This document shows, piece by piece, positions 2,212 through 18,563 of a stretch of 24,000 nucleotides of DNA. A program made the translations under genes and the position numbers. Numbering within the stretch: the stretch's first letter is position 1; every line of letters begins with the position of its first letter. The notes under the pieces were generated by a model. That model searched no databases. It was not told the DNA's origin and was given only the letters and a program-made list of their open reading frames with translations. This DNA comes from Dehalococcoidia bacterium. Lineage in GTDB: Bacteria > Chloroflexota > Dehalococcoidia > Lucifugimonadales > JAGWBF01. The stretch is from assembly GCA_965220375.1 (NCBI GenBank), contig OZ244824.1:1178968-1202967 (forward strand), in the 5' to 3' direction.

Positions 2212-5200
2212 CTACTCGTACCGAAGGGCTTCGGCGGGGGTGACCCGGGAAGCCTGCCTGGCGGGGAAGAAGGTGGTGAGCATAGCGAAGATGTAGGTTG
2301 CGATGATTATTCCCACGATCTGCAGCCAGGGCACAGAGAATTTTATGCCCTCCAGCTGGTCCTCGAACCCGACCACAAGGTTGTTGGACAGGACGAATCC
2401 AAGGCTCACGCCGATAGCAATCCCCAGCAGGGTTACAAAGGAGGATTCCAACAGGAAGCTCAGCTGCACCATCTGCTGGCGGTAGCCCAATGCCCGCAGC
2501 ACGCCTATCTGCTGGCGCCGCTCCACCACAGCCCTCATGGACACCACGCCCAGGGCGGCGATGCCTACGATTAGCCCCAAGCCCATGTAGCCGATCAACA
2601 GGTTGTAGAAGGACCTGAAGAAGGAGACCAGGTCGGCGACTTGGTCCTCCAGCACGACGGTTTCCATGCCGTTGGCCAGGAAGGCGACCTCCAGGTCTTT
2701 CGACGCTTCCCGAACGTCAACCCCTTCGGCCACCTTGAACCTGTAGGTCGTTATCGGTATCTCCCCTGCAACGGGTACATTGATGCCGTTCCTGGACGCT
2801 ATGATACCCGCCAAATCCGCCGTCGGGTCGAGTATGGCGATGATCTTATATTCCCGCTCCCAGCCGCTGAGGGGCTCCGAAACCTCCACGGTTATGGGGG
2901 CTGCCAGGTCCTCGGTGAAGGAGACTCCTTCCAGGGTGAAGCTGCCTGCATCGTTAAAGTCCTGCTCGGCCTGCTCAAGGGCACCCGAATCTATCACCAC
3001 CAGGCTTGGGTCCCGAAGGAGGGCTTCCCACACAGCGTCGTCATCGCCCCTGTACTCGGGTATCGCAGAATGGATGCCGTACCCCGTCTGGTCCAGGTAC
3101 TCATCATCCGAAGCCTGCAGCGCGTAGCTCTCCCATGCCTGGCTTTCGGCCCCTACCTGCCTGACCGCAATGGGAGCTGTGGTGAATCCGCCGATGGCCT
3201 CGAAGTTAGCTATGGACAGGGAAGGGTTGTCTGCGATGGATGCCCGGATGTCGTCGATGGGACTGGCAAAGCTGACCCCGCCTTGGATATCCCAACCCCC
3301 GGCTATGCGCTCCGTATCGCGGAAGGTGTTGGCAAAAGATTCATTGAGCAGGGACATCACCACCATGGTGAAGATCACCAGGGAGAACATGGCTAGTGTG
3401 AGGCCTGTACGGAACTTGGCGCTCATAGGGTAGGCGACGGCGGTAACCACAACGGGCCGCAGCCTCCCCACCCGAGAGGTCAGGATCGTAAGGCCCCGCA
3501 GCAGGAGGTCGGCGTTGTACATAACCGTCCACACCGCGGCGCCCACCATGCATATCCCGGAGATGAAGAACATCTCGATGTCACCCTCCAGGTCCCCGGC
3601 CAGCACATCCCCCAGGTCCGCCGGGAGCAGCCAGAAGGCCAGCACCAAGACCCCTATCAGGGTGAAGGCGTGGCGATCGATGGTCTGGGGCCTTCGGGGA
3701 ACCTGGCCGCTGAGCAAGGGTAGGACCATGGAGGCCCCGGCAATCAGCAGCAGGGCCCCTATCGTGATGGTTACCGCCTGCCCGTTCAGAATGGCGTAGG
3801 GAAGCAGCAGCACTCCCGAAAGGGCCAAGAGGAAGCCGAACACCTCGGTGAACTGGGGCTGTGCCGTCACCAATAGGCGCAGCATAAGCCCAAAGCCGAG
3901 GACCATCAGGGTCATGCCCAGGGTGAAGGCCGCCTCAGAACTCCACGCCTGGATGCCTTGATAGTACAGGAACGCCCCAATCAGGAAGATGAGCCAGCCC
4001 CTGCGCAGATAGGGCAGAGAGAAACGCACGATGGCAATGAATAAGTCGGTTATCCAGATGGGGAACACGATCACCCAGAGGACGCTGCTCAGGGAGCGGA
4101 GGGTACCCCGCAGGAACCTGCCGCGGGCTATGGAGGAGATGCCCTGCCACAGGAAGACTATGGGCCGCCCCAGGGACAGGGGGAGCAGCTTCGCCCGTTC
4201 CATGAAGGAAGGCTCGCCACCCAGGACGATGTTTTCCGGCACCCCACGCACCGCCTCGGCGATGTTCATTCGGCTGACGCGGGTTGCCGAAACTACGGCG
4301 GTGACAAAGACGATGATCATCCCCATGCAGAAGGCGGCGATAATGCTCCTGGCCTCCACATGGTAGGTGAACGAGAAGTCCAAATCGATCCGACCAATAA
4401 TGTAATTGAGCAGGGCGATGATGCCATAGCTGATCACCAAGCCCAGCAGGGTCCCCACGGCTGCGGCGATCAGGTCGTAGGTGGTGCCCTCGAAGACGAA
4501 CATCTGCACCAGGTGGCTTCGCTTCGCCCCCACGGCCCGGGCCATGCCCATCTCAGTGCGCCGGGCGGCAGCCAGCATCACGAAGATCAGGAATATCAGA
4601 AGGATGCCCACCATGATGGAGAACAGGCCGAACATGACAAACAGGGATGTGATCCCGCTTCCGGCCTGGTCGGCGATGTCCAGGAGGAAGCGCTTGAGCT
4701 CGAACACGCTCAGGGACGCCAGGTCCTGGAAGAGGTTGTACGCTTCATCAAGGACCTCCCGACGCTGGTCATCGGGCAGTCCCGCGCCTTCTATGGCTGA
4801 TAGCACATCATCCTGCACCGACGGGTCCGAGAGGGTCTGCACAAGCTCATCGGAAATCCTCGGCTCTTGCAGCTCCCGGTGGAGGATGTCGAGCTGCTCC
4901 TTGGCCCGACCCAGGGCGGAGCTTCTCTGATCATCTATGGCTGACAGCACGTCGGGCTGGCTGAGCAGGACCTTCAGCTCGGCTGCCACACCTTCGTCGG
5001 CCAGCAGCCCCCGCAGATGGGTCGTAACGTCCCGGCTAAGGTCGGCTCCATCCTGGGACCCTCCCAGGTTTGATACGGAGATGGTGTTGATCTGTCCCTG
5101 GCGCCCGAAGAGCTCCTGTCCCTGCTCCAGGGAAAGGAGGGCCGTGGGGCTGGTGCTCTGTCCTGCCATGCCTCCCGACCGGACGATTTCGGCCACATCG

Positions 5201-5853
5201 AAGGCTTTCGTGTCCCCGCCGACTTGCAGGGCGATTCGGTGGCCCGCTTGCGCCTCCAGCTCCTCGGCCGCCGCGTCGTTTAGGTAAAGGCTTCCGCCGG
5301 GGAGCTGCTGAACGGACACAACCTCGCCGGAAAGGGTGGTGAGGGGCCTAAACCCGTCCAGGTGCGCCGGGTCAAATGCAGTTACCCGCATGCGGCCCTC
5401 GCTGAGGGATGTGGTATCGCTGAAAGCCGGGACCGTCTCAGCCATGTGGGGAATGATGCCGTCGATCTGGTTGAAGCCCTGCAGGGCCTCCTGCAGCCGG
5501 CGGAATTCATCCTCGGAGAAATAAGGCGGGCCGGGCTGTCCGAAACCCTCCGGGTCCTCGGAGGAGGTCAAGACCTCGTCGATGTTTCCCAGCTCCACTA
5601 TAGCGTCGCTGCGAATGGAGCTGCTGATGGTGTCGCCGGTGGCAAAGGCTGCTGTGATGATCACAGCGCTCAGCATGGAACCGACCACGATGAGCACGGA
5701 CTGGGACTTGCGGCGGGGGATGTTGCGCAGACCCAGGCGCAGCATCACCCGGTTCCTCCACGCCAGGATGCCCACGACGAGCATGATCGCCAGGAAGACG
5801 ATCAGCATGGTCGCCGATATGTAGGTCATTGAAAGGCCGAACAGCTCATCCAT
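2212..5853 (-). CDS. ABC transporter permease, MacB/FtsX-type with two FtsX modules (1213 aa)
   Basis: N-terminal TM helix, then a long soluble segment and a first FtsX-like bundle (around RRTEMGMARAVGAKRSHLVQMF). A central block of extra hydrophobic helices and a second soluble segment follow. A second FtsX-like bundle sits at the C-terminus (RRQQIGVLRALGYRQQMVQLSF). ATG at 5853 lies 14 nt after the ATPase stop with an AGGTGAG RBS. Confidence 0.85.
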   Translation of the reverse strand: MDELFGLSMTYISATMLIVFLAIMLVVGILAWRNRVMLRLGLRNIPRRKSQSVLIVVGSMLSAVIITAAFATGDTISSSIRSDAIVELGNIDEVLTSSEDPEGFGQPGPPYFSEDEFRRLQEALQGFNQIDGIIPHMAETVPAFSDTTSLSEGRMRVTAFDPAHLDGFRPLTTLSGEVVSVQQLPGGSLYLNDAAAEELEAQAGHRIALQVGGDTKAFDVAEIVRSGGMAGQSTSPTALLSLEQGQELFGRQGQINTISVSNLGGSQDGADLSRDVTTHLRGLLADEGVAAELKVLLSQPDVLSAIDDQRSSALGRAKEQLDILHRELQEPRISDELVQTLSDPSVQDDVLSAIEGAGLPDDQRREVLDEAYNLFQDLASLSVFELKRFLLDIADQAGSGITSLFVMFGLFSIMVGILLIFLIFVMLAAARRTEMGMARAVGAKRSHLVQMFVFEGTTYDLIAAAVGTLLGLVISYGIIALLNYIIGRIDLDFSFTYHVEARSIIAAFCMGMIIVFVTAVVSATRVSRMNIAEAVRGVPENIVLGGEPSFMERAKLLPLSLGRPIVFLWQGISSIARGRFLRGTLRSLSSVLWVIVFPIWITDLFIAIVRFSLPYLRRGWLIFLIGAFLYYQGIQAWSSEAAFTLGMTLMVLGFGLMLRLLVTAQPQFTEVFGFLLALSGVLLLPYAILNGQAVTITIGALLLIAGASMVLPLLSGQVPRRPQTIDRHAFTLIGVLVLAFWLLPADLGDVLAGDLEGDIEMFFISGICMVGAAVWTVMYNADLLLRGLTILTSRVGRLRPVVVTAVAYPMSAKFRTGLTLAMFSLVIFTMVVMSLLNESFANTFRDTERIAGGWDIQGGVSFASPIDDIRASIADNPSLSIANFEAIGGFTTAPIAVRQVGAESQAWESYALQASDDEYLDQTGYGIHSAIPEYRGDDDAVWEALLRDPSLVVIDSGALEQAEQDFNDAGSFTLEGVSFTEDLAAPITVEVSEPLSGWEREYKIIAILDPTADLAGIIASRNGINVPVAGEIPITTYRFKVAEGVDVREASKDLEVAFLANGMETVVLEDQVADLVSFFRSFYNLLIGYMGLGLIVGIAALGVVSMRAVVERRQQIGVLRALGYRQQMVQLSFLLESSFVTLLGIAIGVSLGFVLSNNLVVGFEDQLEGIKFSVPWLQIVGIIIATYIFAMLTTFFPARQASRVTPAEALRYE

Positions 5854-5867
5854 TGCTCACCTGCGGG

Positions 5868-6593
5868 TTACCTGTTGGACCCTGCGCGGCCTCTAGCTTG
5901 AGAAGCAGACATGCCGTCATCCACAACTATGCCGTCCCGCATGCGGACGATGCGGTGGGCGCGGTCGCCTACATCCTGTCCATGGGTCACCATGACGAAG
6001 GTCTGACGATTCTCCTGGTTCAGGCGGCACATCAGCTCCATGATGTCGTTGGTCGTTTCGCTGTCCAGGTCGCCGGTCGGTTCGTCGGCCCAGACTATTG
6101 CAGGTTCGTTTATCAGCGCCCTGGCTATGGTCACCCTCTGGCGCTGGCCCCCGGAAAGCTCGCCGGGCAGGTGGTGGGCCCTCTCTGAAAGCCCTACGAT
6201 ATCTAGCTGCTCCATGGACTTGCGTCGGGCCTCCCTGGGATTTACACCCGCAACCAGAAGGGGCATCTCCACATTCTCCACAGAGGTGAGGACGGGGATC
6301 AGGTTGTATAGCTGGAACACGAATCCCATCCGGCGGGCGCGGTAGTCGCTGCGTTCATCGTCGGGAAGCTCGTGCAGTTTCTTGTTCTCGATGAGTATCT
6401 CCCCCTGGTCCACCGTGTCCAGTCCCGACATGCAGTTGAGAAGGGTGGTCTTCCCGCAGCCGCTGGGACCCATGATGGCGAGCATCTCGCCCCGCTCGAC
6501 GGTCAGGTCCACTCCCTTCAGCGCTTCCACCTTTATCGTTCCTGTGTCGTAGGTCTTGAATACATCCCGCACTACTACGGACGGAACCTCCAC
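5868..6593 (-). CDS. ABC transporter ATP-binding protein (MacB/LolD-like)
   Basis: Walker [10 protein letters not shown], signature LSGGQRQRV and Walker [16 protein letters not shown] start at 6593 has AGGAGGG 5 nt upstream. Confidence 0.9.
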
Positions 6594-6654
6594 TGGACCC
6601 TCCTAACCTTGACATTGACATATCGGGCGGCTTAGCCTCTCTCCAAGCAAACGC

Positions 6655-6669
6655 CCTATATCATATAGG
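6655..6669 (+). promoter_or_regulatory. 15-bp perfect palindrome CCTATAT-C-ATATAGG overlapping the Shine-Dalgarno of the cupin gene
   Basis: Read directly: 7-bp arms around a central C. The right arm runs into AGGAGGG (6667-6673), which precedes the GTG start at 6676. Confidence 0.3.
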
Positions 6670-6675
6670 AGGGAA

Positions 6676-6987
6676 GTGGCTGTGGCTAGGGGGGATGCAC
6701 CCTTGGGAGAAGTGGCAACCAGGGTGCTGTTTGAGAATGAAAAAGTGAAGATATGGAGCTTGGAGGTAGCCCCCGGCGATGCCAGCGACTGGCATCTCCA
6801 CAAGTGGGACTACGTCACCGTGTCTGTGGAGGGGGAGCGCCTTGTGCGGGAGCTGGAAGATGGGACCACAGAGCTGGTGGCCTTCGAGCCTGGGCGATGG
6901 ACGTATCATGCGGGACCTGAGGTACACCGGGTGATCAACGACAGCCAGGTCCCGTGGCAGAACCTGCTGATCGAGATCAAGGACTAG
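6676..6987 (+). CDS. Small cupin-domain protein
   Basis: 103-aa ORF with GTG start after AGGAGGG. It has an HLH (HxH) motif followed by a VSVEG strand and a later H (EVHRVIN), the cupin metal-site pattern. The beta-rich sequence is typical of a single cupin barrel. Confidence 0.6.
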   Translation: MAVARGDAPLGEVATRVLFENEKVKIWSLEVAPGDASDWHLHKWDYVTVSVEGERLVRELEDGTTELVAFEPGRWTYHAGPEVHRVINDSQVPWQNLLIEIKD

Positions 6988-7026
6988 GCGCCCGCCCAAG
7001 TTTATCCGAACGGACCTTGGCCCCTA

Positions 7027-7059
7027 TCTCCTTACCAGCGTATCCTCTTCGTAAGGAGA
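7027..7059 (+). promoter_or_regulatory. 9-bp perfect inverted repeat TCTCCTTAC-N15-GTAAGGAGA covering the vapB RBS
   Basis: Read directly. The right arm contains the AAGGAGA Shine-Dalgarno 7 nt before the vapB ATG (7066). It could be an autoregulatory operator or an RBS-sequestering hairpin. Confidence 0.35.
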
Positions 7060-7065
7060 CGCGCG

Positions 7066-7311
7066 ATGTTAGTCAAGGTCACTTCTAAGAGGCAGGTAAC
7101 CTTTCCAGCCCGGGTGCTGGAGGCACTGGGAGTTGAGCCGGGGGACCAGATTGAGCTGCTCGAAGGCCCGGATGGCTTCTTACTGCGCCCGCGCCGGATA
7201 GACTATTCCAAGCTGGGCACCCTCCGGGACAAGATACCACCCGGGACCCCGCCCTTTGACATCCGCAAATTCAGAGACGAGGGATATGATCCGTACAAGT
7301 ATCGGGATTGA
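7066..7311 (+). CDS. vapB: AbrB/MazE/SpoVT-family antitoxin (VapB-like)
   Basis: N-terminal swapped-hairpin signature: VKVTSKRQVTFPARVLEALGVEPGDQIELL. Its 3' end overlaps the start of a PIN-domain reading frame, which is the classic TA arrangement. Confidence 0.8.
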   Translation: MLVKVTSKRQVTFPARVLEALGVEPGDQIELLEGPDGFLLRPRRIDYSKLGTLRDKIPPGTPPFDIRKFRDEGYDPYKYRD

Positions 7312-7689
7312 CGCCTCCGTACTTGTGCGGCTCGCCTTGGTCAGCTACAAGACCTATTCGCCCGATGTGTCGCACGGTTAAGGGACCTCTCGTCAGGTGG
7401 AGTTGAGGTTCTTGCCTCCAACCAGGTGATCGGGGAGGCATACGTTGCCCTTCAGCGCCACTATGTCATTTCGTGGGAGGACTCCAGAGCCGCGCTTCAT
7501 GCCACCCTCACCAGCGGCCTGGCAGCCCCCCTCAACGGAGGTCCTGTACTGGATGCCCTCTCTGCCTCCGGCGGCCCCGGCCTCTTTGCCCGGCTGATAG
7601 CCAACGACTACTCCCACGCCGGTTTGGAAACTCTGACCCTGGACCGGCAGATGGCCTCGCTGCCTGCAGCGCGGCTCCTCGAAGGGTAG
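7286..7689 (+). pseudogene. vapC: PIN-domain toxin (VapC-like), disrupted by a frameshift
   Basis: ATG at 7286 (GAGGGA RBS, overlapping the vapB 3' end) opens MIRTSIGIDASVLVRLA, the first PIN acidic motif, and stops at 7379-7381. The rest of the PIN domain continues in another frame, open from 7312 to 7689: VEVLASNQVIGEAYVALQRHY ... LIANDY ... TLTLDR. The frame switch must lie around 7330-7345. Confidence 0.65.
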
Positions 7690-7726
7690 TACGGATGTTG
7701 TTCTTCTATTGAGGCGGTGGGCACTG

Positions 7727-7948
7727 ATGACTTACCACGTTTACGAGAACTGGACGATTAACAAGGCAATTGTCCACGAGGGTAGATGCCCTTATTGTAA
7801 GCATGGCCGGGGCATCCACAGGACGGATCGCGGGAGGAACGGTCAATGGCATGGGCCATACGAAACGAGAGATGAGGCGCTTCAACACGCCAGAGCTACG
7901 GAAAGGCGTGATGTGAGGGCATGCAAGTTCTGCTTGGGCGGTCAATAG
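7727..7948 (+). CDS. Small Cys4 zinc-ribbon-like protein, function unknown (island gene 1)
   Basis: 73 aa from the ATG at 7727; the track start at 7709 is TTG. It has two CxxC pairs (CPYC and CKFC) about 45 residues apart. It is the first gene of the AT-richer island. Confidence 0.55.
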   Translation: MTYHVYENWTINKAIVHEGRCPYCKHGRGIHRTDRGRNGQWHGPYETRDEALQHARATERRDVRACKFCLGGQ

Positions 7949-7972
7949 AACCCCAGCGATGAAGGGACCGGA

Positions 7973-8275
7973 ATGAATGACCAGCAGTTGGACCGAAACT
8001 TAAGATCCATAGGGAAAGAATGCTTTGTTACGTTCTTCGGAGAGCTTTGCGACCTAGAACTAACTAACGAGGCCGTTGCCAGATACATTGCGCAAGATTG
8101 GGGTTGCGATGAAGGCGCTGCCCTAACTTGGCGCGTGAATCCCGCCCGAAAGATCGTCCAAGCAGGGCGCGCGGCGGACGCGTTGGATATTTGCGCAAGA
8201 AGCCGTTTGCCAGCCCATACTAGGGATAGAGCCGCTGAATTAGCTGCCCATTTGAGGAAGTCAAGCCTGCCATGA
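7973..8275 (+). CDS. Hypothetical 100-aa protein, predicted helical (island gene 2)
   Basis: ATG preceded by GAAGGGA. Its stop overlaps the next gene start as ATGA (8272-8275), implying translational coupling. I recognise no family. Confidence 0.5.
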   Translation: MNDQQLDRNLRSIGKECFVTFFGELCDLELTNEAVARYIAQDWGCDEGAALTWRVNPARKIVQAGRAADALDICARSRLPAHTRDRAAELAAHLRKSSLP

Positions 8276-8784
8276 ACAGTGCTGAGACATTCAAGAGTTC
8301 ATTGCGATGGCTGGAACACAGCTACACAGACTACACGTTCTACACGGAGCGGGATGTCGTTTGGACAGTACAGAAGCATATCTCAGAAGAGATTGGCAAA
8401 GCAGGTCTGCGATGCCGGGTTTTCAACGACCACACTATCTTTAAGGGAACCAGGGCCGATCTGGTGATCCTTGGTGAGGGGGATTTCGTAGAGATAGCCG
8501 TTGAGTTCAAGTACGAGCCATCCCACGCTCGCAGGGCGGACCGTGGTGGAGACATCTGGCCATCAAAACTTGACCCTTCGGTAGTATTTTGGACCGGAGA
8601 GGGAAGCGTCCAAAAAGATGTAGACCGTGTGCAAGAATATGTCAAAAGGCTGTTGGCTAAGGAAGCCTTCTCCATCTTCATAGATGAGGGCGGCCGCTTC
8701 CGGTCCCGCAGCCCCCATAAGGGGAGCGAGTGGATAGACTGGGGCCGGGGTGTAAGTGTACTCTGGTCTCACGTGGTTCAGTAG
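8272..8784 (+). CDS. Hypothetical protein with PD-(D/E)xK nuclease-like motif (island gene 3)
   Basis: 170 aa. The spacing E26 ... D63 (RADLVIL) ... E78-F-K80 (IAVEFKYE) matches the restriction-endonuclease-fold core: beta-strand D, then hydrophobic strand ExK. The call rests on the motif only. Confidence 0.5.
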   Translation: MNSAETFKSSLRWLEHSYTDYTFYTERDVVWTVQKHISEEIGKAGLRCRVFNDHTIFKGTRADLVILGEGDFVEIAVEFKYEPSHARRADRGGDIWPSKLDPSVVFWTGEGSVQKDVDRVQEYVKRLLAKEAFSIFIDEGGRFRSRSPHKGSEWIDWGRGVSVLWSHVVQ

Positions 8785-16657: not shown

Positions 16658-17821
16658 ATGACACTTCCCACCCCCTTGAAGTTTGGAATCTTCATGGCCC
16701 CCTTCCACCGCCTGGGGGACAACCCCACCCTGGCGCTGGAGAGGGACCTTGAGCTTATCCAGCGGCTGGATGAGCTGGGCTTTGACGAAGCATGGATAGG
16801 AGAGCACCACAGCGCGGGATGGGAGACTATCGCTTCTCCGGAGATATTCATCGGCATAGCCGCCGAGCGCACCCGCCATATCCGGCTGGGCACCGGCGTG
16901 ATCAGTCTCCCATACCACCACCCCCTGATGGTCGCAAACCGGATGGTGCTCCTGGACCACCTGACCCGGGGCCGGGTAATGCTCGGGGTTGGCCCGGGGG
17001 CCCTGGTGTCCGACGCCGTCATGCTGGGCATCGACCCCGAGCTCCAGAGGGAGCGCATGGAGGAGTCCCTGGGCATCATAATGCGCCTGTTCACAGAGAC
17101 CGAACCAATTACCTACAAGAGCGACTGGTTCGAGATTAACGACGCCGTGCTCCAGCTCCGCCCGTACCAGAAGCCCCATATTCCGGTGGCTGTGGCTTCT
17201 GTGCAGTCCCCATCGGGTGTTGCCTTGGCGGGGAAGCACGGCGCCGCGGTGCTCTCGGCCAGCATTCCCCGGGATTCGTCGGGGGAAGCTCAGCTATCCT
17301 ACCTTTGGGATGTGGCAGAAGAGTCGGCCGCAAAGCACGGCAAGACGGTCCACAGGAGTGAATGGCGCCTGTCCATACCGGTGCACCTGGCTGAAACCAG
17401 GGAGAAGGCCTTTGCCGAAGCGCGCCTGGGGGCTGGCCAGTTCCAGAGGGAGTACTTCGAAGACACTATAGGCAGGAAGCCGGATGAGCCCCTGCCCGTA
17501 GAGGAGATCATTGACCAGATGGCGGACCTGGGGCACTGGATCATCGGCACCCCCGATGACTGCATAGCGGGAATCGAGAAGCTCATGGAGCGCAGCGGCG
17601 GGTTCGGCGGACTGCTGATCATGGCCCAAGACTGGGCGCCCCGGCAGGCTATATTGAACAGCTATGAGCTGATGGCCCGGTACGTGATGCCCCATTTCCA
17701 GGACAGCCTCACCGGGCTGGAGATATCCAACCAATGGTCGCGGGACCGCACCGCTGAGCTTATGGCCGCCCGGCAGTCTTCCATCGCCCGCGCCCGCACC
17801 AGCTATGCCGAGCGCCGGTAG
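16658..17821 (+). CDS. LLM-class (luciferase-like) flavin-dependent oxidoreductase
   Basis: N-terminus FGIFMAPFH ... LELIQRLDELGFDEAWIGEHHS is typical of the luciferase-like monooxygenase TIM-barrel family. Length is 387 aa. Confidence 0.88.
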   Translation: MTLPTPLKFGIFMAPFHRLGDNPTLALERDLELIQRLDELGFDEAWIGEHHSAGWETIASPEIFIGIAAERTRHIRLGTGVISLPYHHPLMVANRMVLLDHLTRGRVMLGVGPGALVSDAVMLGIDPELQRERMEESLGIIMRLFTETEPITYKSDWFEINDAVLQLRPYQKPHIPVAVASVQSPSGVALAGKHGAAVLSASIPRDSSGEAQLSYLWDVAEESAAKHGKTVHRSEWRLSIPVHLAETREKAFAEARLGAGQFQREYFEDTIGRKPDEPLPVEEIIDQMADLGHWIIGTPDDCIAGIEKLMERSGGFGGLLIMAQDWAPRQAILNSYELMARYVMPHFQDSLTGLEISNQWSRDRTAELMAARQSSIARARTSYAERR

Positions 17822-17954
17822 GCGGGGCTTCGTTAACCGGTAGGGCGCCCGCAACAGCTATGCCGAGCGCCGGTAGCCGAGGCTTTGTTAACCGGTAGGG
17901 CGCCCGCAACAGCTATGCCGAGCGCCGGTAGCCGAGGCTTTGTTAACCCGTAGG
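17801..17954. repeat. 55-bp tandem repeat, about 2.8 copies, spanning the convergent 3' ends of two genes
   Basis: Copies at 17801-17855, 17856-17910 and 17911-17954 (partial). Copy 1 and copy 2 differ at 3 of 55 positions. Each copy starts with AGCTATGCCGAGCGCCGGTAG, the last 6 codons plus stop of the LLM gene. An 11-nt microhomology (GCGCCCGCAaC / GCGCCCGCAcC) precedes each copy. Confidence 0.9.
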
Positions 17955-18467
17955 AGCGGGCTGCCCTCCCGCGCTCTCCCGCTCAAGCCGTCTCCGCTCC
18001 CGGCTGCGCACCGAGTTAAGCACCTGTTCGACAGCCATGCGCCCGACGGGGCCGGAGGCGTACATGGAGCCGAAGATGGTGCCGCCCCGAAGCACCAGGA
18101 GTTCCATGGGTTGAACGTACCGGCCGTGCTGGTCGTCGGCCCACCACGGGTCCAGCTCCCGCACATCCTCTTCGGTAATTCCGTAGGCTACGGGGATGGT
18201 AAGCCCATCTTCCTGGGCTGTCTCCGCGGCGGTGTTCCTGTCCTCCACCGTGGCGGCGATAACCTCCACGCCCAGCTCTTGCAGTTCATCGATGCTCGCT
18301 TGGTAGCTGGCCAACTGCCGGCGGCAGTAAGGTCACCACTTGCCCCTGTAGAAGAGAAGGACGAGGTAGCGGCCGGACATATCGCCTGGAAGCTGGATGC
18401 TCCGCCCATCGGTCAGGTCCAGCTTCATGGAAGGGAACTTCTCTCCCTGCACCAGCTTGCTTGGCAA
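17943..18467 (-). CDS. Peroxiredoxin-like (PRX_like2 / AhpC-TSA thioredoxin-fold) protein with in-frame TGA at the redox Cys position; selenoprotein candidate (U45-P-Y-C48)
   Basis: Hand translation upstream of the track ORF (17943-18314) continues in the same frame through a single TGA at 18333-18335. It reads MPSKLVQGEKFPSMKLDLTDGRSIQLPGDMSGRYLVLLFYRGKW-TGA-PYCRRQLASYQ... FYRGxWCPxC is the hallmark CxxC motif of this family, and the TGA replaces its first Cys. TTG start at 18467 has GGAGGTG 5-6 nt upstream. Total length is 174 codons. Confidence 0.65.
18311..18331 (-). promoter_or_regulatory. Candidate bacterial SECIS-like hairpin just downstream of the in-frame UGA
   Basis: The mRNA reads UGA-CCUU-ACUGCC-GCC-GGCAGU-UGG. 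It has a 6-bp GC-rich stem (18314-18328), a G-containing apical loop, and a possible 2-bp extension. The loop is somewhat closer to the UGA than in classic bSECIS models, so this is tentative. Confidence 0.35.
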
Positions 18468-18543
18468 GGGCCACCTCCGATGCTTCAGTTGCTATTATGC
18501 CCGCCCTTTGATCGTGGGCCGGCGTGAAGGAGGTATATGTTTC

Positions 18544-18563
18544 CCCCTCCCTTGAGGGAGGGG
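18544..18563. other. Perfect 8-bp hairpin CCCCTCCC-TTGA-GGGAGGGG in the intergenic spacer
   Basis: Read directly from the sequence. Function unknown. Confidence 0.5.

Follow-up and report, generated by a model that had tools for sequence, protein, structure and literature searches.

Results

Gene structure at the locus

The analysed window comprises 24,000 nucleotides of a 2.64-Mb Dehalococcoidia genome and encodes NusA/IF-2, MFS and GNAT proteins, an XDH-family Mo subunit and a luciferase-like monooxygenase. Among these neighbours, positions 18467..17943 of the minus strand translate as a single frame of 174 codons, the sole internal stop of which is the TGA at 18335..18333 (translated context LLFYRGKW*PYCRRQL). 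The features of this region are the following.

18472..18478, minus strand: Shine-Dalgarno-like GGAGGTG, with 6 nt from GGAGG to the start codon (direct reading)
18465..18467, minus strand: TTG start codon (direct reading; N-terminus as in the homologues)
17943..18467, minus strand: complete predicted selenoprotein gene, 174 codons plus TAA (translation, Pfam, full-length homologues)
18333..18335, minus strand: in-frame TGA, predicted selenocysteine (Sec) codon at position 1 of UxxC (translation and homologue alignment)
18324..18326, minus strand: TGC codon of the invariant second Cys (C48) of UxxC (homologue alignment; alignment to the peroxiredoxin 6q5v)
18306..18332, minus strand: codons +1 to +9 after the TGA, under synonymous-site constraint and predicted to contain the SECIS (synonymous diversity; fold stability)
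18314..18328, minus strand: hairpin H1, ACUGCC-GCC-GGCAGU (fold of −7.7 kcal/mol)
18306..18322, minus strand: hairpin H3, the best-supported candidate for the SECIS core (covariation; clade folds; compensated variant)
17943..17945, minus strand: TAA stop codon of the gene (translation)

Translation confirmed the frame with its one in-frame TGA that the first-pass annotation had described, and the GGAGGTG ribosome-binding site and the TTG start at 18467 were also found as it had read them. The N-terminus obtained from this start, (M)PSKLVQG, agrees with those of full-length homologues (MPQKLVQG, MAEKLVQG). The list of open reading frames splits the gene into a 44-aa ORF (18333..18467) and a 123-aa ORF (17943..18314), and the public gene calls on the source contig give the same two pieces, as expected from the earlier claim that standard ORF calling breaks the gene apart. 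Two independent assemblies, ERZ25072076 (37x) and ERZ25067264 (10x), agree on the TGA; the differences between them are one synonymous SNP and a differently arranged 3' repeat.

In the window, TGA terminates the genes of RbfA, IF-2 and one MFS protein (MFS1), and it is the terminal stop of 30 of the 83 genes of the family analysed. Because TGA serves as an ordinary stop in both sets, UGA is not reassigned here. Of all TGA triplets in the window, just the one at 18335..18333 lies in gene-free space between two coding-like stretches.

Conservation of the TGA codon

The alignment of 32 full-length homologues (167–189 aa) placed the TGA column on the first Cys of a W-C-P-Y-C motif that hardly varies, exactly where the first-pass annotation had expected the first Cys of CxxC; the second Cys of the motif is invariant. 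About 50 full-length Cys proteins were found among the database homologues. Among the species-level genomes of Dehalococcoidia and Chloroflexota, the orthologues of which show 50–69% protein identity, the motif codon is TGA in 75 of 80 cases and TGT or TGC in the other five. All 15 close metagenome copies also carry TGA, and the codon is TGY in 65 distant relatives. The alternation between TGA and a Cys codon thus spans approximately 95 close orthologues. In the tree, the nearest relative of the window gene (L087) has TGA at this position as well. The ortholog set further includes nested replacements by Cys and Ser and tandem duplicates.

An open frame with a start codon 43–44 codons ahead of the motif codon is present in all 83 family genes. 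The mean pairwise amino acid identity is 0.59 upstream and 0.56 downstream of the motif codon, and the excess of third-position changes is about twofold and equal in the upstream and downstream halves. By these sequence comparisons, both halves of the gene evolve in the manner of coding sequence and under the same type of constraint. Further stops or frameshifts are missing from 74 of the 75 genome copies. One relative, L017, has decayed; it reads U-P-Y-Y and contains an additional in-frame stop.

RNA-level constraint and candidate SECIS hairpins

The ratios of observed to expected synonymous diversity in codons +1 to +9 after the TGA were 0.67, 0.48, 1.06, 0.88, 0.58, 0.06, 0.87, 0.40 and 0.33, respectively, in comparison with about 0.9 elsewhere, and the dip was confined to these nine codons. 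The value of 0.06 belongs to the Gln codon, which is CAG in nearly all Sec forms. The 42 nt located 3' of the UGA fold at −12.0 kcal/mol in the Sec forms vs −8.4 kcal/mol for synonymous recodings (z −1.22, n = 80), whereas the same test revealed no extra stability in the Cys forms (z +0.06 and −0.20) and gave z −0.13 and −0.01 for control regions. RNA-level constraint immediately after the TGA is therefore present in the Sec forms and absent from the Cys forms.

Bacterial SECIS elements are described by a consensus with an apical loop of 3–9 nt containing G in its first two positions, a stem of 4–16 bp, a UGA-to-loop spacing of 16–37 nt and a minimum free energy of −7.5 kcal/mol or lower (PMC13188914). 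The hairpin H1, which the first-pass annotation had put forward as a possible SECIS, does exist; it begins 4 nt after the UGA, and its energy of −7.7 kcal/mol lies within the threshold. As a SECIS it fared less well. Its UGA-to-loop spacing of 10 nt is outside the consensus range, it persists in the Cys form L007 and, although it is 88% paired across the family, pair counting across the family detected no covariation beyond that in shuffles. For these reasons, and because H1 cannot explain a synonymous constraint which reaches codon +9, it is probably at most a part of the SECIS.

The overlapping hairpin H3, which is mutually exclusive with H1, consists of the pairs G-C, C-G, (C.A), G-C, G-C and C-G with the apical loop AGUUG, and its UGA-to-loop spacing is 16 nt. 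Its loop, stem and spacing are within the consensus; its energy in the window (−6.7 kcal/mol, with the C.A mismatch) is slightly weaker than that of H1 and slightly above the −7.5 kcal/mol threshold. In 73 sequences, 38 double-sided cells were counted for H3 vs 18.4±2.7 in shuffles (0/500), and its covariation score was 0.281 vs at most 0.117 for slid controls. Strong folds of the H3 type were found in other clades, and L094/L096 carry a compensated H3 variant. H3 is thus most likely the SECIS stem-loop of the window gene, a choice which we infer from comparative sequence data. The signal came only from folds within clades and explicit pair counting: the RNAalifold consensus of all 73 sequences contained only an invariant 4-bp stem without covariation, and clade B folds differently, using another stem. 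The window sequence alone is not individually significant (z −0.74 for the 45-nt fold and +0.43 for the 79-nt fold), and 10% of its synonymous recodings fold equally well; because it is not more stable than shuffles, the single-sequence fold gives no evidence on its own. Another hairpin, H2 (loop at nt 24–27), was rejected for its lack of covariation and its weak fold in the window (−3.5 kcal/mol). A search of the window at Rfam gathering thresholds gave no match, a result that bears on the SECIS only if Rfam includes a bacterial SECIS model.

Protein family and active site

The protein matched AhpC-TSA (PF00578; E 4e-19, 69.2 bits at a gathering score of 26) and Redoxin (E 7e-14) in Pfam. A fold model was built on a Cys homologue (61% identical) in place of the window protein. 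It exhibited a peroxiredoxin (Prx) fold (pLDDT 88) with TM values of 0.76/0.84 against 3hjp, and the window protein is accordingly predicted from the homologue model to be Prx-like in fold. In the alignment with Prx 6q5v, the second Cys of UxxC falls on the peroxidatic Cys of peroxiredoxins, and the Sec codon falls on the Thr of the Prx TxxC, which is the position of the first Cys in the thioredoxin-type CxxC. When aligned with 6q5v and 5xbq, the protein lacks both the Prx signature PxxxT/SxxC and the catalytic Arg: Arg41 stands in the place of Pro, Sec45 in that of Thr and Met121 in that of the catalytic Arg. Position 121 varies among the full-length homologues; Arg41 does not.

No NCBIfam selenoprotein model reached its cut-off with this protein, and no NCBIfam model captures the clade. 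The protein is not a member of PrxU (NF040737; 24.9 bits vs a cut-off of 270), of the SelL-related redox proteins (NF040769; 24.7 bits vs 120, E 1.6e-5) or of ResA/TlpA (NF002854; 34.8 bits vs 170, E 1.4e-8). No N-terminal membrane anchor or signal sequence was seen in the translation. The clade is specific to Dehalococcoidia and is marked by FYRGxW-U-PYC, QPxE, YASGPVGR and an RERRR tail. The neighbours of the gene in the window do not recur beside it in other genomes, and because synteny is not conserved there is no operon clue to its function.

Search for Sec machinery

None of selA, selB, selD and the gene of tRNA-Sec was seen in the approximately 33 kb of the source genome examined, which included about 9 kb beyond the window. 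With ARAGORN, the window yielded no tRNA, and the 42 tRNAs detected in 1.5 Mb of related loci did not include tRNA-Sec. The tblastn search of all retrieved loci with E. coli SelA, SelB and SelD yielded only cross-matches to IF-2 and one weak SelA-like match. Since the survey covered about 33 kb of 2.64 Mb, we infer the Sec trait of the source organism rather than observe it.

Discussion

The region very probably represents one intact gene, encoding a 174-residue selenoprotein of the Prx (AhpC/TSA) fold with the redox motif Sec-Pro-Tyr-Cys. The conserved TGA, its alternation with Cys codons, the coding constraint in the two halves and the RNA-level constraint all support the first-pass proposal of a UxxC selenoprotein. 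By analogy with what is established for bacterial Sec incorporation, SelB-GTP-Sec-tRNA(Sec) would decode the internal UGA as selenocysteine, and a short SECIS stem-loop, situated within the coding sequence just 3' of the UGA, would recruit SelB. This stem-loop would most likely be H3 (18322..18306), the loop AGUUG of which begins 16 nt after the UGA. The protein may act as a thiol/selenol-disulfide oxidoreductase, in which Sec would make the nucleophilic attack and the motif Cys, three residues further on, would resolve the intermediate as a selenenylsulfide. Such chemistry would be that of the thioredoxin-type CxxC rather than the canonical peroxiredoxin mechanism.

Several other readings of the in-frame TGA have to be weighed. 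Although the source is a metagenome assembly, an error at this codon is so improbable as to be negligible, given two independent assemblies with the identical codon and its recurrence in about 90 other genomes and contigs. A Cys-type redoxin gene inactivated by a nonsense mutation, with the two ORFs as its remnants, would require only one transversion from TGC or TGT; the public gene calls do give two fragments, and the relative L017 has truly decayed. However, the same codon would then have been "mutated" in about 90 orthologues at 50–69% identity, in a family where 74 of 75 genome copies are otherwise free of stops and frameshifts, where coding-type constraint is equal on both sides of the codon and where additional RNA constraint follows it. 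At the family level the pseudogene reading is effectively refuted, and for the window gene we consider it very improbable. UGA reassignments exist in some bacteria (genetic code tables 4 and 25), so a suppressor tRNA or an alternative code could in principle give Trp, Gly or Cys at the codon, through read-through or reassignment. This is more improbable still, since TGA ends RbfA, IF-2, the MFS gene and 30 of the 83 family genes, no other TGA in the window is flanked by coding-like sequence in gene-free space, and at the redox site TGA alternates specifically with Cys codons and is accompanied by a local RNA element.

There is also a slim chance that translation really ends at the TGA in this organism: the lineage would have inherited the Sec-type gene, the source genome would since have lost the Sec machinery, and the gene, yielding only a 44-residue peptide, would be heading to decay. 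The machinery was indeed not found in the roughly 33 kb examined, and bacteria have often lost the Sec trait in the course of evolution (PMC1794560). The gene itself speaks against such a fate: it is intact in its ribosome-binding site and start codon and keeps the second Cys as well as both candidate hairpins, the two strain-level assemblies differ only by a synonymous change, and the closest relative in the tree retains TGA. The class is also selenoprotein-rich; in BSepDB, MAGs of Dehalococcoidia rank with the bacteria richest in selenoproteins, at up to 46–49 genes (PMC13326102).

The selenoprotein reading places the gene in known territory. UxxC selenoproteins of the AhpC/TSA type ("Prx-like") have been catalogued as an abundant family since 2005–2008 (PMC1088965, PMC2398784), and the surveys of Zhang and Gladyshev define this family, also called "Prx-like 1", by pfam00578 and UxxC/UxxU (PMC1088965, PMC1794560, PMC2398784, PMC9312934). 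The window gene has the pfam00578 domain and an in-frame TGA at position 1 of UxxC, its Cys homologues align at the TGA, and the TGA is kept among orthologues. On these published criteria its sequence can be assigned to the "Prx-like thiol:disulfide oxidoreductase" selenoproteins (PF00578 plus UxxC). It shares with them the AhpC/TSA domain, Sec as the first residue of UxxC, numerous Cys homologues, a putative SECIS directly downstream in the coding sequence and a function that is predicted; marine and environmental metagenomes contain the family in abundance. Most of its published representatives come from Deltaproteobacteria (e.g. WP_010940744.1), whereas the window clade belongs to Dehalococcoidia, and the assignment follows the published definition. 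The named homologue matches are MAG proteins of Chloroflexi/Dehalococcoidia, with no source name pointing to WP_010940744.1.

Canonical peroxiredoxins of the Prx6/BCP types, which provide the closest solved structures (3hjp, 6q5v and 5xbq), have the same overall fold, a peroxidatic Cys at the position of the second Cys and a Y..evGR segment that aligns with the C-terminal Y..GPVGR..E of the window protein, but all three of their catalytic signature residues are replaced in the window family. In the Sec-containing peroxiredoxins (TxxU, PrxU), Sec replaces the peroxidatic Cys, whereas the window gene has it at the other position (UxxC). Similarity to the extracytoplasmic CxxC oxidoreductases ResA/TlpA/StoA, which have a thioredoxin-like CxxC at the equivalent position, is detectable in sequence (3c71, E 1.4e-7), but the scores are far below the cut-offs and the C-terminal half of the window protein is of the Prx type. 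The SelL-related proteins (NF040769), a thioredoxin-fold redox family related to a selenoprotein, resemble it to the extent of a weak match. Like the bacterial SECIS of the E. coli fdhF type, H3 follows the UGA directly, as a stem-loop inside the coding sequence, with a 5-nt loop having G and then U at positions 2–3 and a stem of six positions (five pairs and one mismatch); it differs in a spacing at the very bottom of the range, the C.A mismatch and the overlapping competitor H1.

A bolder interpretation, which we regard as unlikely, is that the clade forms a distinct, uncatalogued subfamily. Sec would be long-standing in it, with a few later replacements by Cys or Ser as a rough tree suggests, and the subfamily would combine a GPx-like position of Sec with a Cys at the Prx peroxidatic position, a replaced Pro/Thr/Arg triad and a minimal SECIS at the lower spacing limit, overlapping a competing hairpin 4 nt after the UGA. 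If so, decoding might depend on the choice between the two structures, and the SECIS would be among the 12.6% of BSepDB entries without a canonical SECIS (100% minus the 87.4% reported).

No new mechanism or new kind of system is revealed by this gene; it belongs to a selenoprotein type which has been known since 2005 and is still truncated by gene-calling software. Its practical value lies in annotation, in an abundant environmental lineage. Database records, for this genome as for dozens of Dehalococcoidia/SAR202 MAGs, list the gene either in two pieces or in truncated form as a "redoxin domain-containing protein", and because these forms are also not captured by NCBIfam, the selenoproteomes and redox inventories of Dehalococcoidia/SAR202 are undercounted. 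The approximately 90 TGA orthologues are good material both for studying the exchange between Sec and Cys and for refining bacterial SECIS models at the short-spacing end.

Structure and annotation of the gene

The first-pass annotation had described a gene that standard ORF calling splits at an in-frame TGA, and this was borne out by our analysis. The gene has the following elements:

18478..18472, minus strand: GGAGGTG, upstream of the start
TTG start codon, minus strand: 6 nt 3' of GGAGG
18467..17943, minus strand: predicted selenoprotein frame, a single 174-codon frame with one internal stop (translation)
18335..18333, minus strand: in-frame TGA, context LLFYRGKW-TGA-PYCRRQL

Both the ribosome-binding site and the TTG start proposed earlier are present, and the resulting N-terminus, (M)PSKLVQG, agrees with those of full-length homologues. 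The mechanical ORF listing gives ORFs of 44 and 123 aa, and the public gene calls of the source contig (2.64 Mb, ENA/NCBI) contain the same two pieces. The frame with its internal TGA is real and not an assembly artefact, because an independent assembly of another sample carries the identical TGA. The two assemblies differ by one synonymous SNP and in the arrangement of the 3' repeat.

TGA as a probable selenocysteine codon

The protein database search yielded about 50 full-length homologues (167–189 aa) and about 65 further ones called only as C-terminal fragments of 95–125 aa. As had been proposed, the TGA falls at the first Cys of the CxxC motif: in the alignment with 32 full-length homologues, this column (the first Cys of W-C-P-Y-C) is Cys in 30 and Ser in two, and the second Cys never varies. 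Scanning GTDB with one genome for each species yielded 80 loci, all from Dehalococcoidia, Chloroflexota or SAR202 MAGs (50–69% identity), with TGA as the motif codon in 75, TGT in three and TGC in two. In the metagenome scan, the close copies have TGA (15/15) and the distant FYRGxWCPYC relatives (≤39% identity) TGC or TGT (65/65). An open frame with a start codon 43–44 codons 5' of the motif codon was found in all 83 genes of the genome loci. Among the 75 TGA orthologues, the halves on either side of TGA evolve alike: the upstream half has a mean pairwise amino acid identity of 0.59 and the downstream half 0.56, and third-position differences are about twice those at positions 1+2 in both halves.

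TGA is not reassigned. It terminates the RbfA, IF-2 and an MFS gene within the window, where the TGA studied here is the only one with coding-like flanks on both sides (GC3 0.81 and 0.78) in otherwise gene-free space, and 30 of the 83 family genes (loci L003-L082 and the window) end with TGA. In the mRNAs of those 30 genes, TGA would be selenocysteine (Sec) internally and a stop about 120 codons further on. What decay looks like in this family is exemplified by one locus (L017, around 10133), probably a pseudogene, in which TGA is kept, Tyr stands in place of the second Cys (U-P-Y-Y) and a further in-frame stop follows about 30 codons later; the window copy shows none of these marks. The presence of TGA across the species-level genomes and the close metagenome copies supports the UxxC selenoprotein interpretation, and the window TGA is very probably read as Sec.

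A rough neighbour-joining tree without support values has Sec forms on most of its deep ingroup branches; a single nested clade takes in most close Cys forms, and the Ser forms branch from within Sec forms. The Sec gene is duplicated in tandem, with the copies 533–537 nt apart, in L016 (10127/10660), L036 (10127/10664), L088 (697/1231), L089 (1124/1658) and L093 (317/850). Both copies have TGA except in L036, whose second copy has TCA (Ser); its SxxC motif resembles the T/SxxC of peroxiredoxins (Prx).

RNA structure downstream of UGA

A clear RNA signal follows the UGA at the family level. Along the gene, the ratio of observed to expected synonymous diversity stays near 0.9, and only in codons +1 to +9 after TGA does it drop (0.67, 0.48, 1.06, 0.88, 0.58, 0.06, 0.87, 0.40 and 0.33). 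At codon +6, nearly all Sec forms encode Gln with CAG; His takes this position in 12 of 32 Cys forms. In Sec forms (n=80), the 42 nt 3' of UGA fold at −12.0 kcal/mol, whereas recoding the same peptide synonymously gives −8.4 kcal/mol (mean z −1.22). Neither close (z +0.06) nor distant (z −0.20) Cys forms show this excess stability, and it is likewise absent from two control regions within those Sec genes (z −0.13 and −0.01). For the window alone, 10% of synonymous recodings fold equally well or better, and single-sequence folds were unremarkable (z +0.43 for 79 nt, −0.74 for 45 nt).

Three mutually exclusive hairpins (H1–H3; nt numbered from the U of UGA) fit the window sequence, two of which are:

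18328..18314, minus strand: H1, ACUGCC-GCC-GGCAGU, nt 8-13 paired with 17-22, −7.7 kcal/mol
18322..18306, minus strand: H3, nt 14-19 paired with 25-30, loop nt 20-24 A-G-Y-U-R, covarying

The bacterial SECIS consensus comprises a 3–9-nt loop with G within its initial two positions, a 4–16-bp upper stem, a UGA-to-loop spacing of 16–37 nt and MFE ≤ −7.5 kcal/mol (PMC13188914). H1, the element put forward by the first-pass annotation, is present but is probably not the SECIS, or only part of it: its spacing of 10 nt falls short of the published range, and although its pairing across the family is 88%, its covariation is no better than in shuffles. Its 5' arm is set by the Tyr and Cys codons, and with its 3' end at nt 22 it leaves the constraint at codons +8 and +9 unexplained. 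A Cys form (TGT; L007, 10127-10172) still folds H1 as ACUGCC-GUC-GGCAGU, which reflects either a recent Sec-to-Cys conversion or a by-product of the Y-C-R-R-Q-L codons. H2 (loop nt 24-27) is weak in the window and shows no excess covariation.

H3 has 38 double-sided covariation cells versus 18.4±2.7 in shuffles (0/500) and a covariation score of 0.281 versus 0.128 in shuffles and at most 0.117 in all slid controls. For pair 14-30, 53 sequences have GC and 10 have CG; for pair 15-29, the counts are 29 GC, 18 CG and seven UG. L094 and L096 carry C instead of G18, which breaks H1 and is compensated on the H3 side (GACGCC-AGUU-GGCGUC). In other clades an extended H3 forms strong hairpins (−18.9 kcal/mol and, with a bulged U, −20.2 kcal/mol); Clade B (SAR202-like, UGA AGC UAC...) has a different stem. 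H3 agrees with the consensus in loop, stem and spacing (exactly 16 nt), whereas the window copy contains a C.A mismatch and reaches only −6.7 kcal/mol. We slightly favour H3 as the predicted SECIS core and read H1 as a structure overlapping it, partly a by-product of the codons.

Protein family and Sec machinery

With Cys substituted for TGA in protein searches, the window protein matched Pfam AhpC-TSA (4e-19) and Redoxin (7e-14). No NCBIfam family reached its cut-off (PrxU about 25 bits versus 270, SelL-related about 25 bits versus 120). The nearest solved structures by sequence are Prx6-type peroxiredoxins (6q5v, 4.8e-9) and ResA (3c71, 1.4e-7). A Cys homologue with 61% identity in the alignment was modelled with AlphaFold (pLDDT 88, pTM 0.84), and the model best matched peroxiredoxin and BCP structures (3hjp, TM 0.76/0.84). 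HMMER alignments set W-C/U-P-Y-C opposite the Prx motif F-T-P-V-C, which places the Sec codon at the Thr of Prx TxxC, the position of the N-terminal Cys of thioredoxin-type CxxC, and the invariant second Cys at the peroxidatic Cys. In contrast to canonical Prx, the Pro of PxxxTxxC is replaced by an invariant Arg, and a variable Met stands opposite the catalytic Arg. These differences point to a predicted Prx-fold CxxC/UxxC oxidoreductase rather than a canonical peroxiredoxin.

The window contains no tRNA. In the related loci (1.5 Mb), no tRNA-Sec was found and no SelA, SelB or SelD was identified (one weak SelA-like match), and a further approximately 9 kb of the 2.64-Mb source genome, which brought the part examined to about 33 kb, contained no Sec-machinery genes. 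In BSepDB, two Dehalococcoidia MAGs are among the ten most selenoprotein-rich bacteria (49 and 46 genes; PMC13326102).

Other features of the region

17790-17954: 55-bp tandem repeat, three copies, directly 3' of the Sec gene
~18544-18563, minus strand: GC-rich inverted repeat CCCCTCCCT-CAA-GGGAGGGG
7066-7311, plus strand: MazE/AbrB-type antitoxin ORF (Pfam 5e-10; whole region 7066-7689)
7256-7381 (start ..IGIDASVLV..) and 7426-7689, plus strand: two short ORFs in different frames after the antitoxin ORF

The first copy of the 55-bp repeat extends over the final codons and TAA stop of the Sec gene. No further copy is present elsewhere in the window, and of 166 fetched loci only those of the source genome have the repeat; its region aligns differently between the two assemblies, and the stability of its fold is unexceptional (z −1.09). 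The inverted repeat, which may be a terminator or regulatory hairpin, lies in the 243-nt gap separating a xanthine-dehydrogenase-family Mo-subunit gene from the Sec gene. It has no T-run, and the terminator scan made no call. The two short ORFs had no Pfam match and look like a putative PIN-type toxin split by a frameshift. Past the window end (24000), at 3600-8515 of loci L085/L086, phage portal and rve-integrase genes adjoin MFS transporters. Gene calls there differ between the two assemblies (integrase of 336 versus 155 aa; one 451-aa gene versus 313+150 aa), which points to a prophage or mobile element in decay that varies between strains.

Relation to known selenoproteins

A "Prx-like" selenoprotein family, in which a thioredoxin-like UXXC replaces the Prx TXXU, was defined in the Sargasso Sea and GOS selenoproteome surveys (PMC1088965), and the GOS data contained 225 Sec sequences of "Prx-like 1" (pfam00578, UxxC) along with 2,740 Cys homologues (PMC2398784). 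Since selenoprotein families are defined by a conserved domain plus Sec motif (PMC9312934, PMC13188914), the window gene would, judged from its sequence, count as a member of the Prx-like family. No conserved neighbours hinting at a specific pathway were found. The finding is an annotation error in a known kind of selenoprotein, in a lineage already known to be selenoprotein-rich, and it is of value for annotation and as a source of clean comparative data on bacterial SECIS elements with short spacing.
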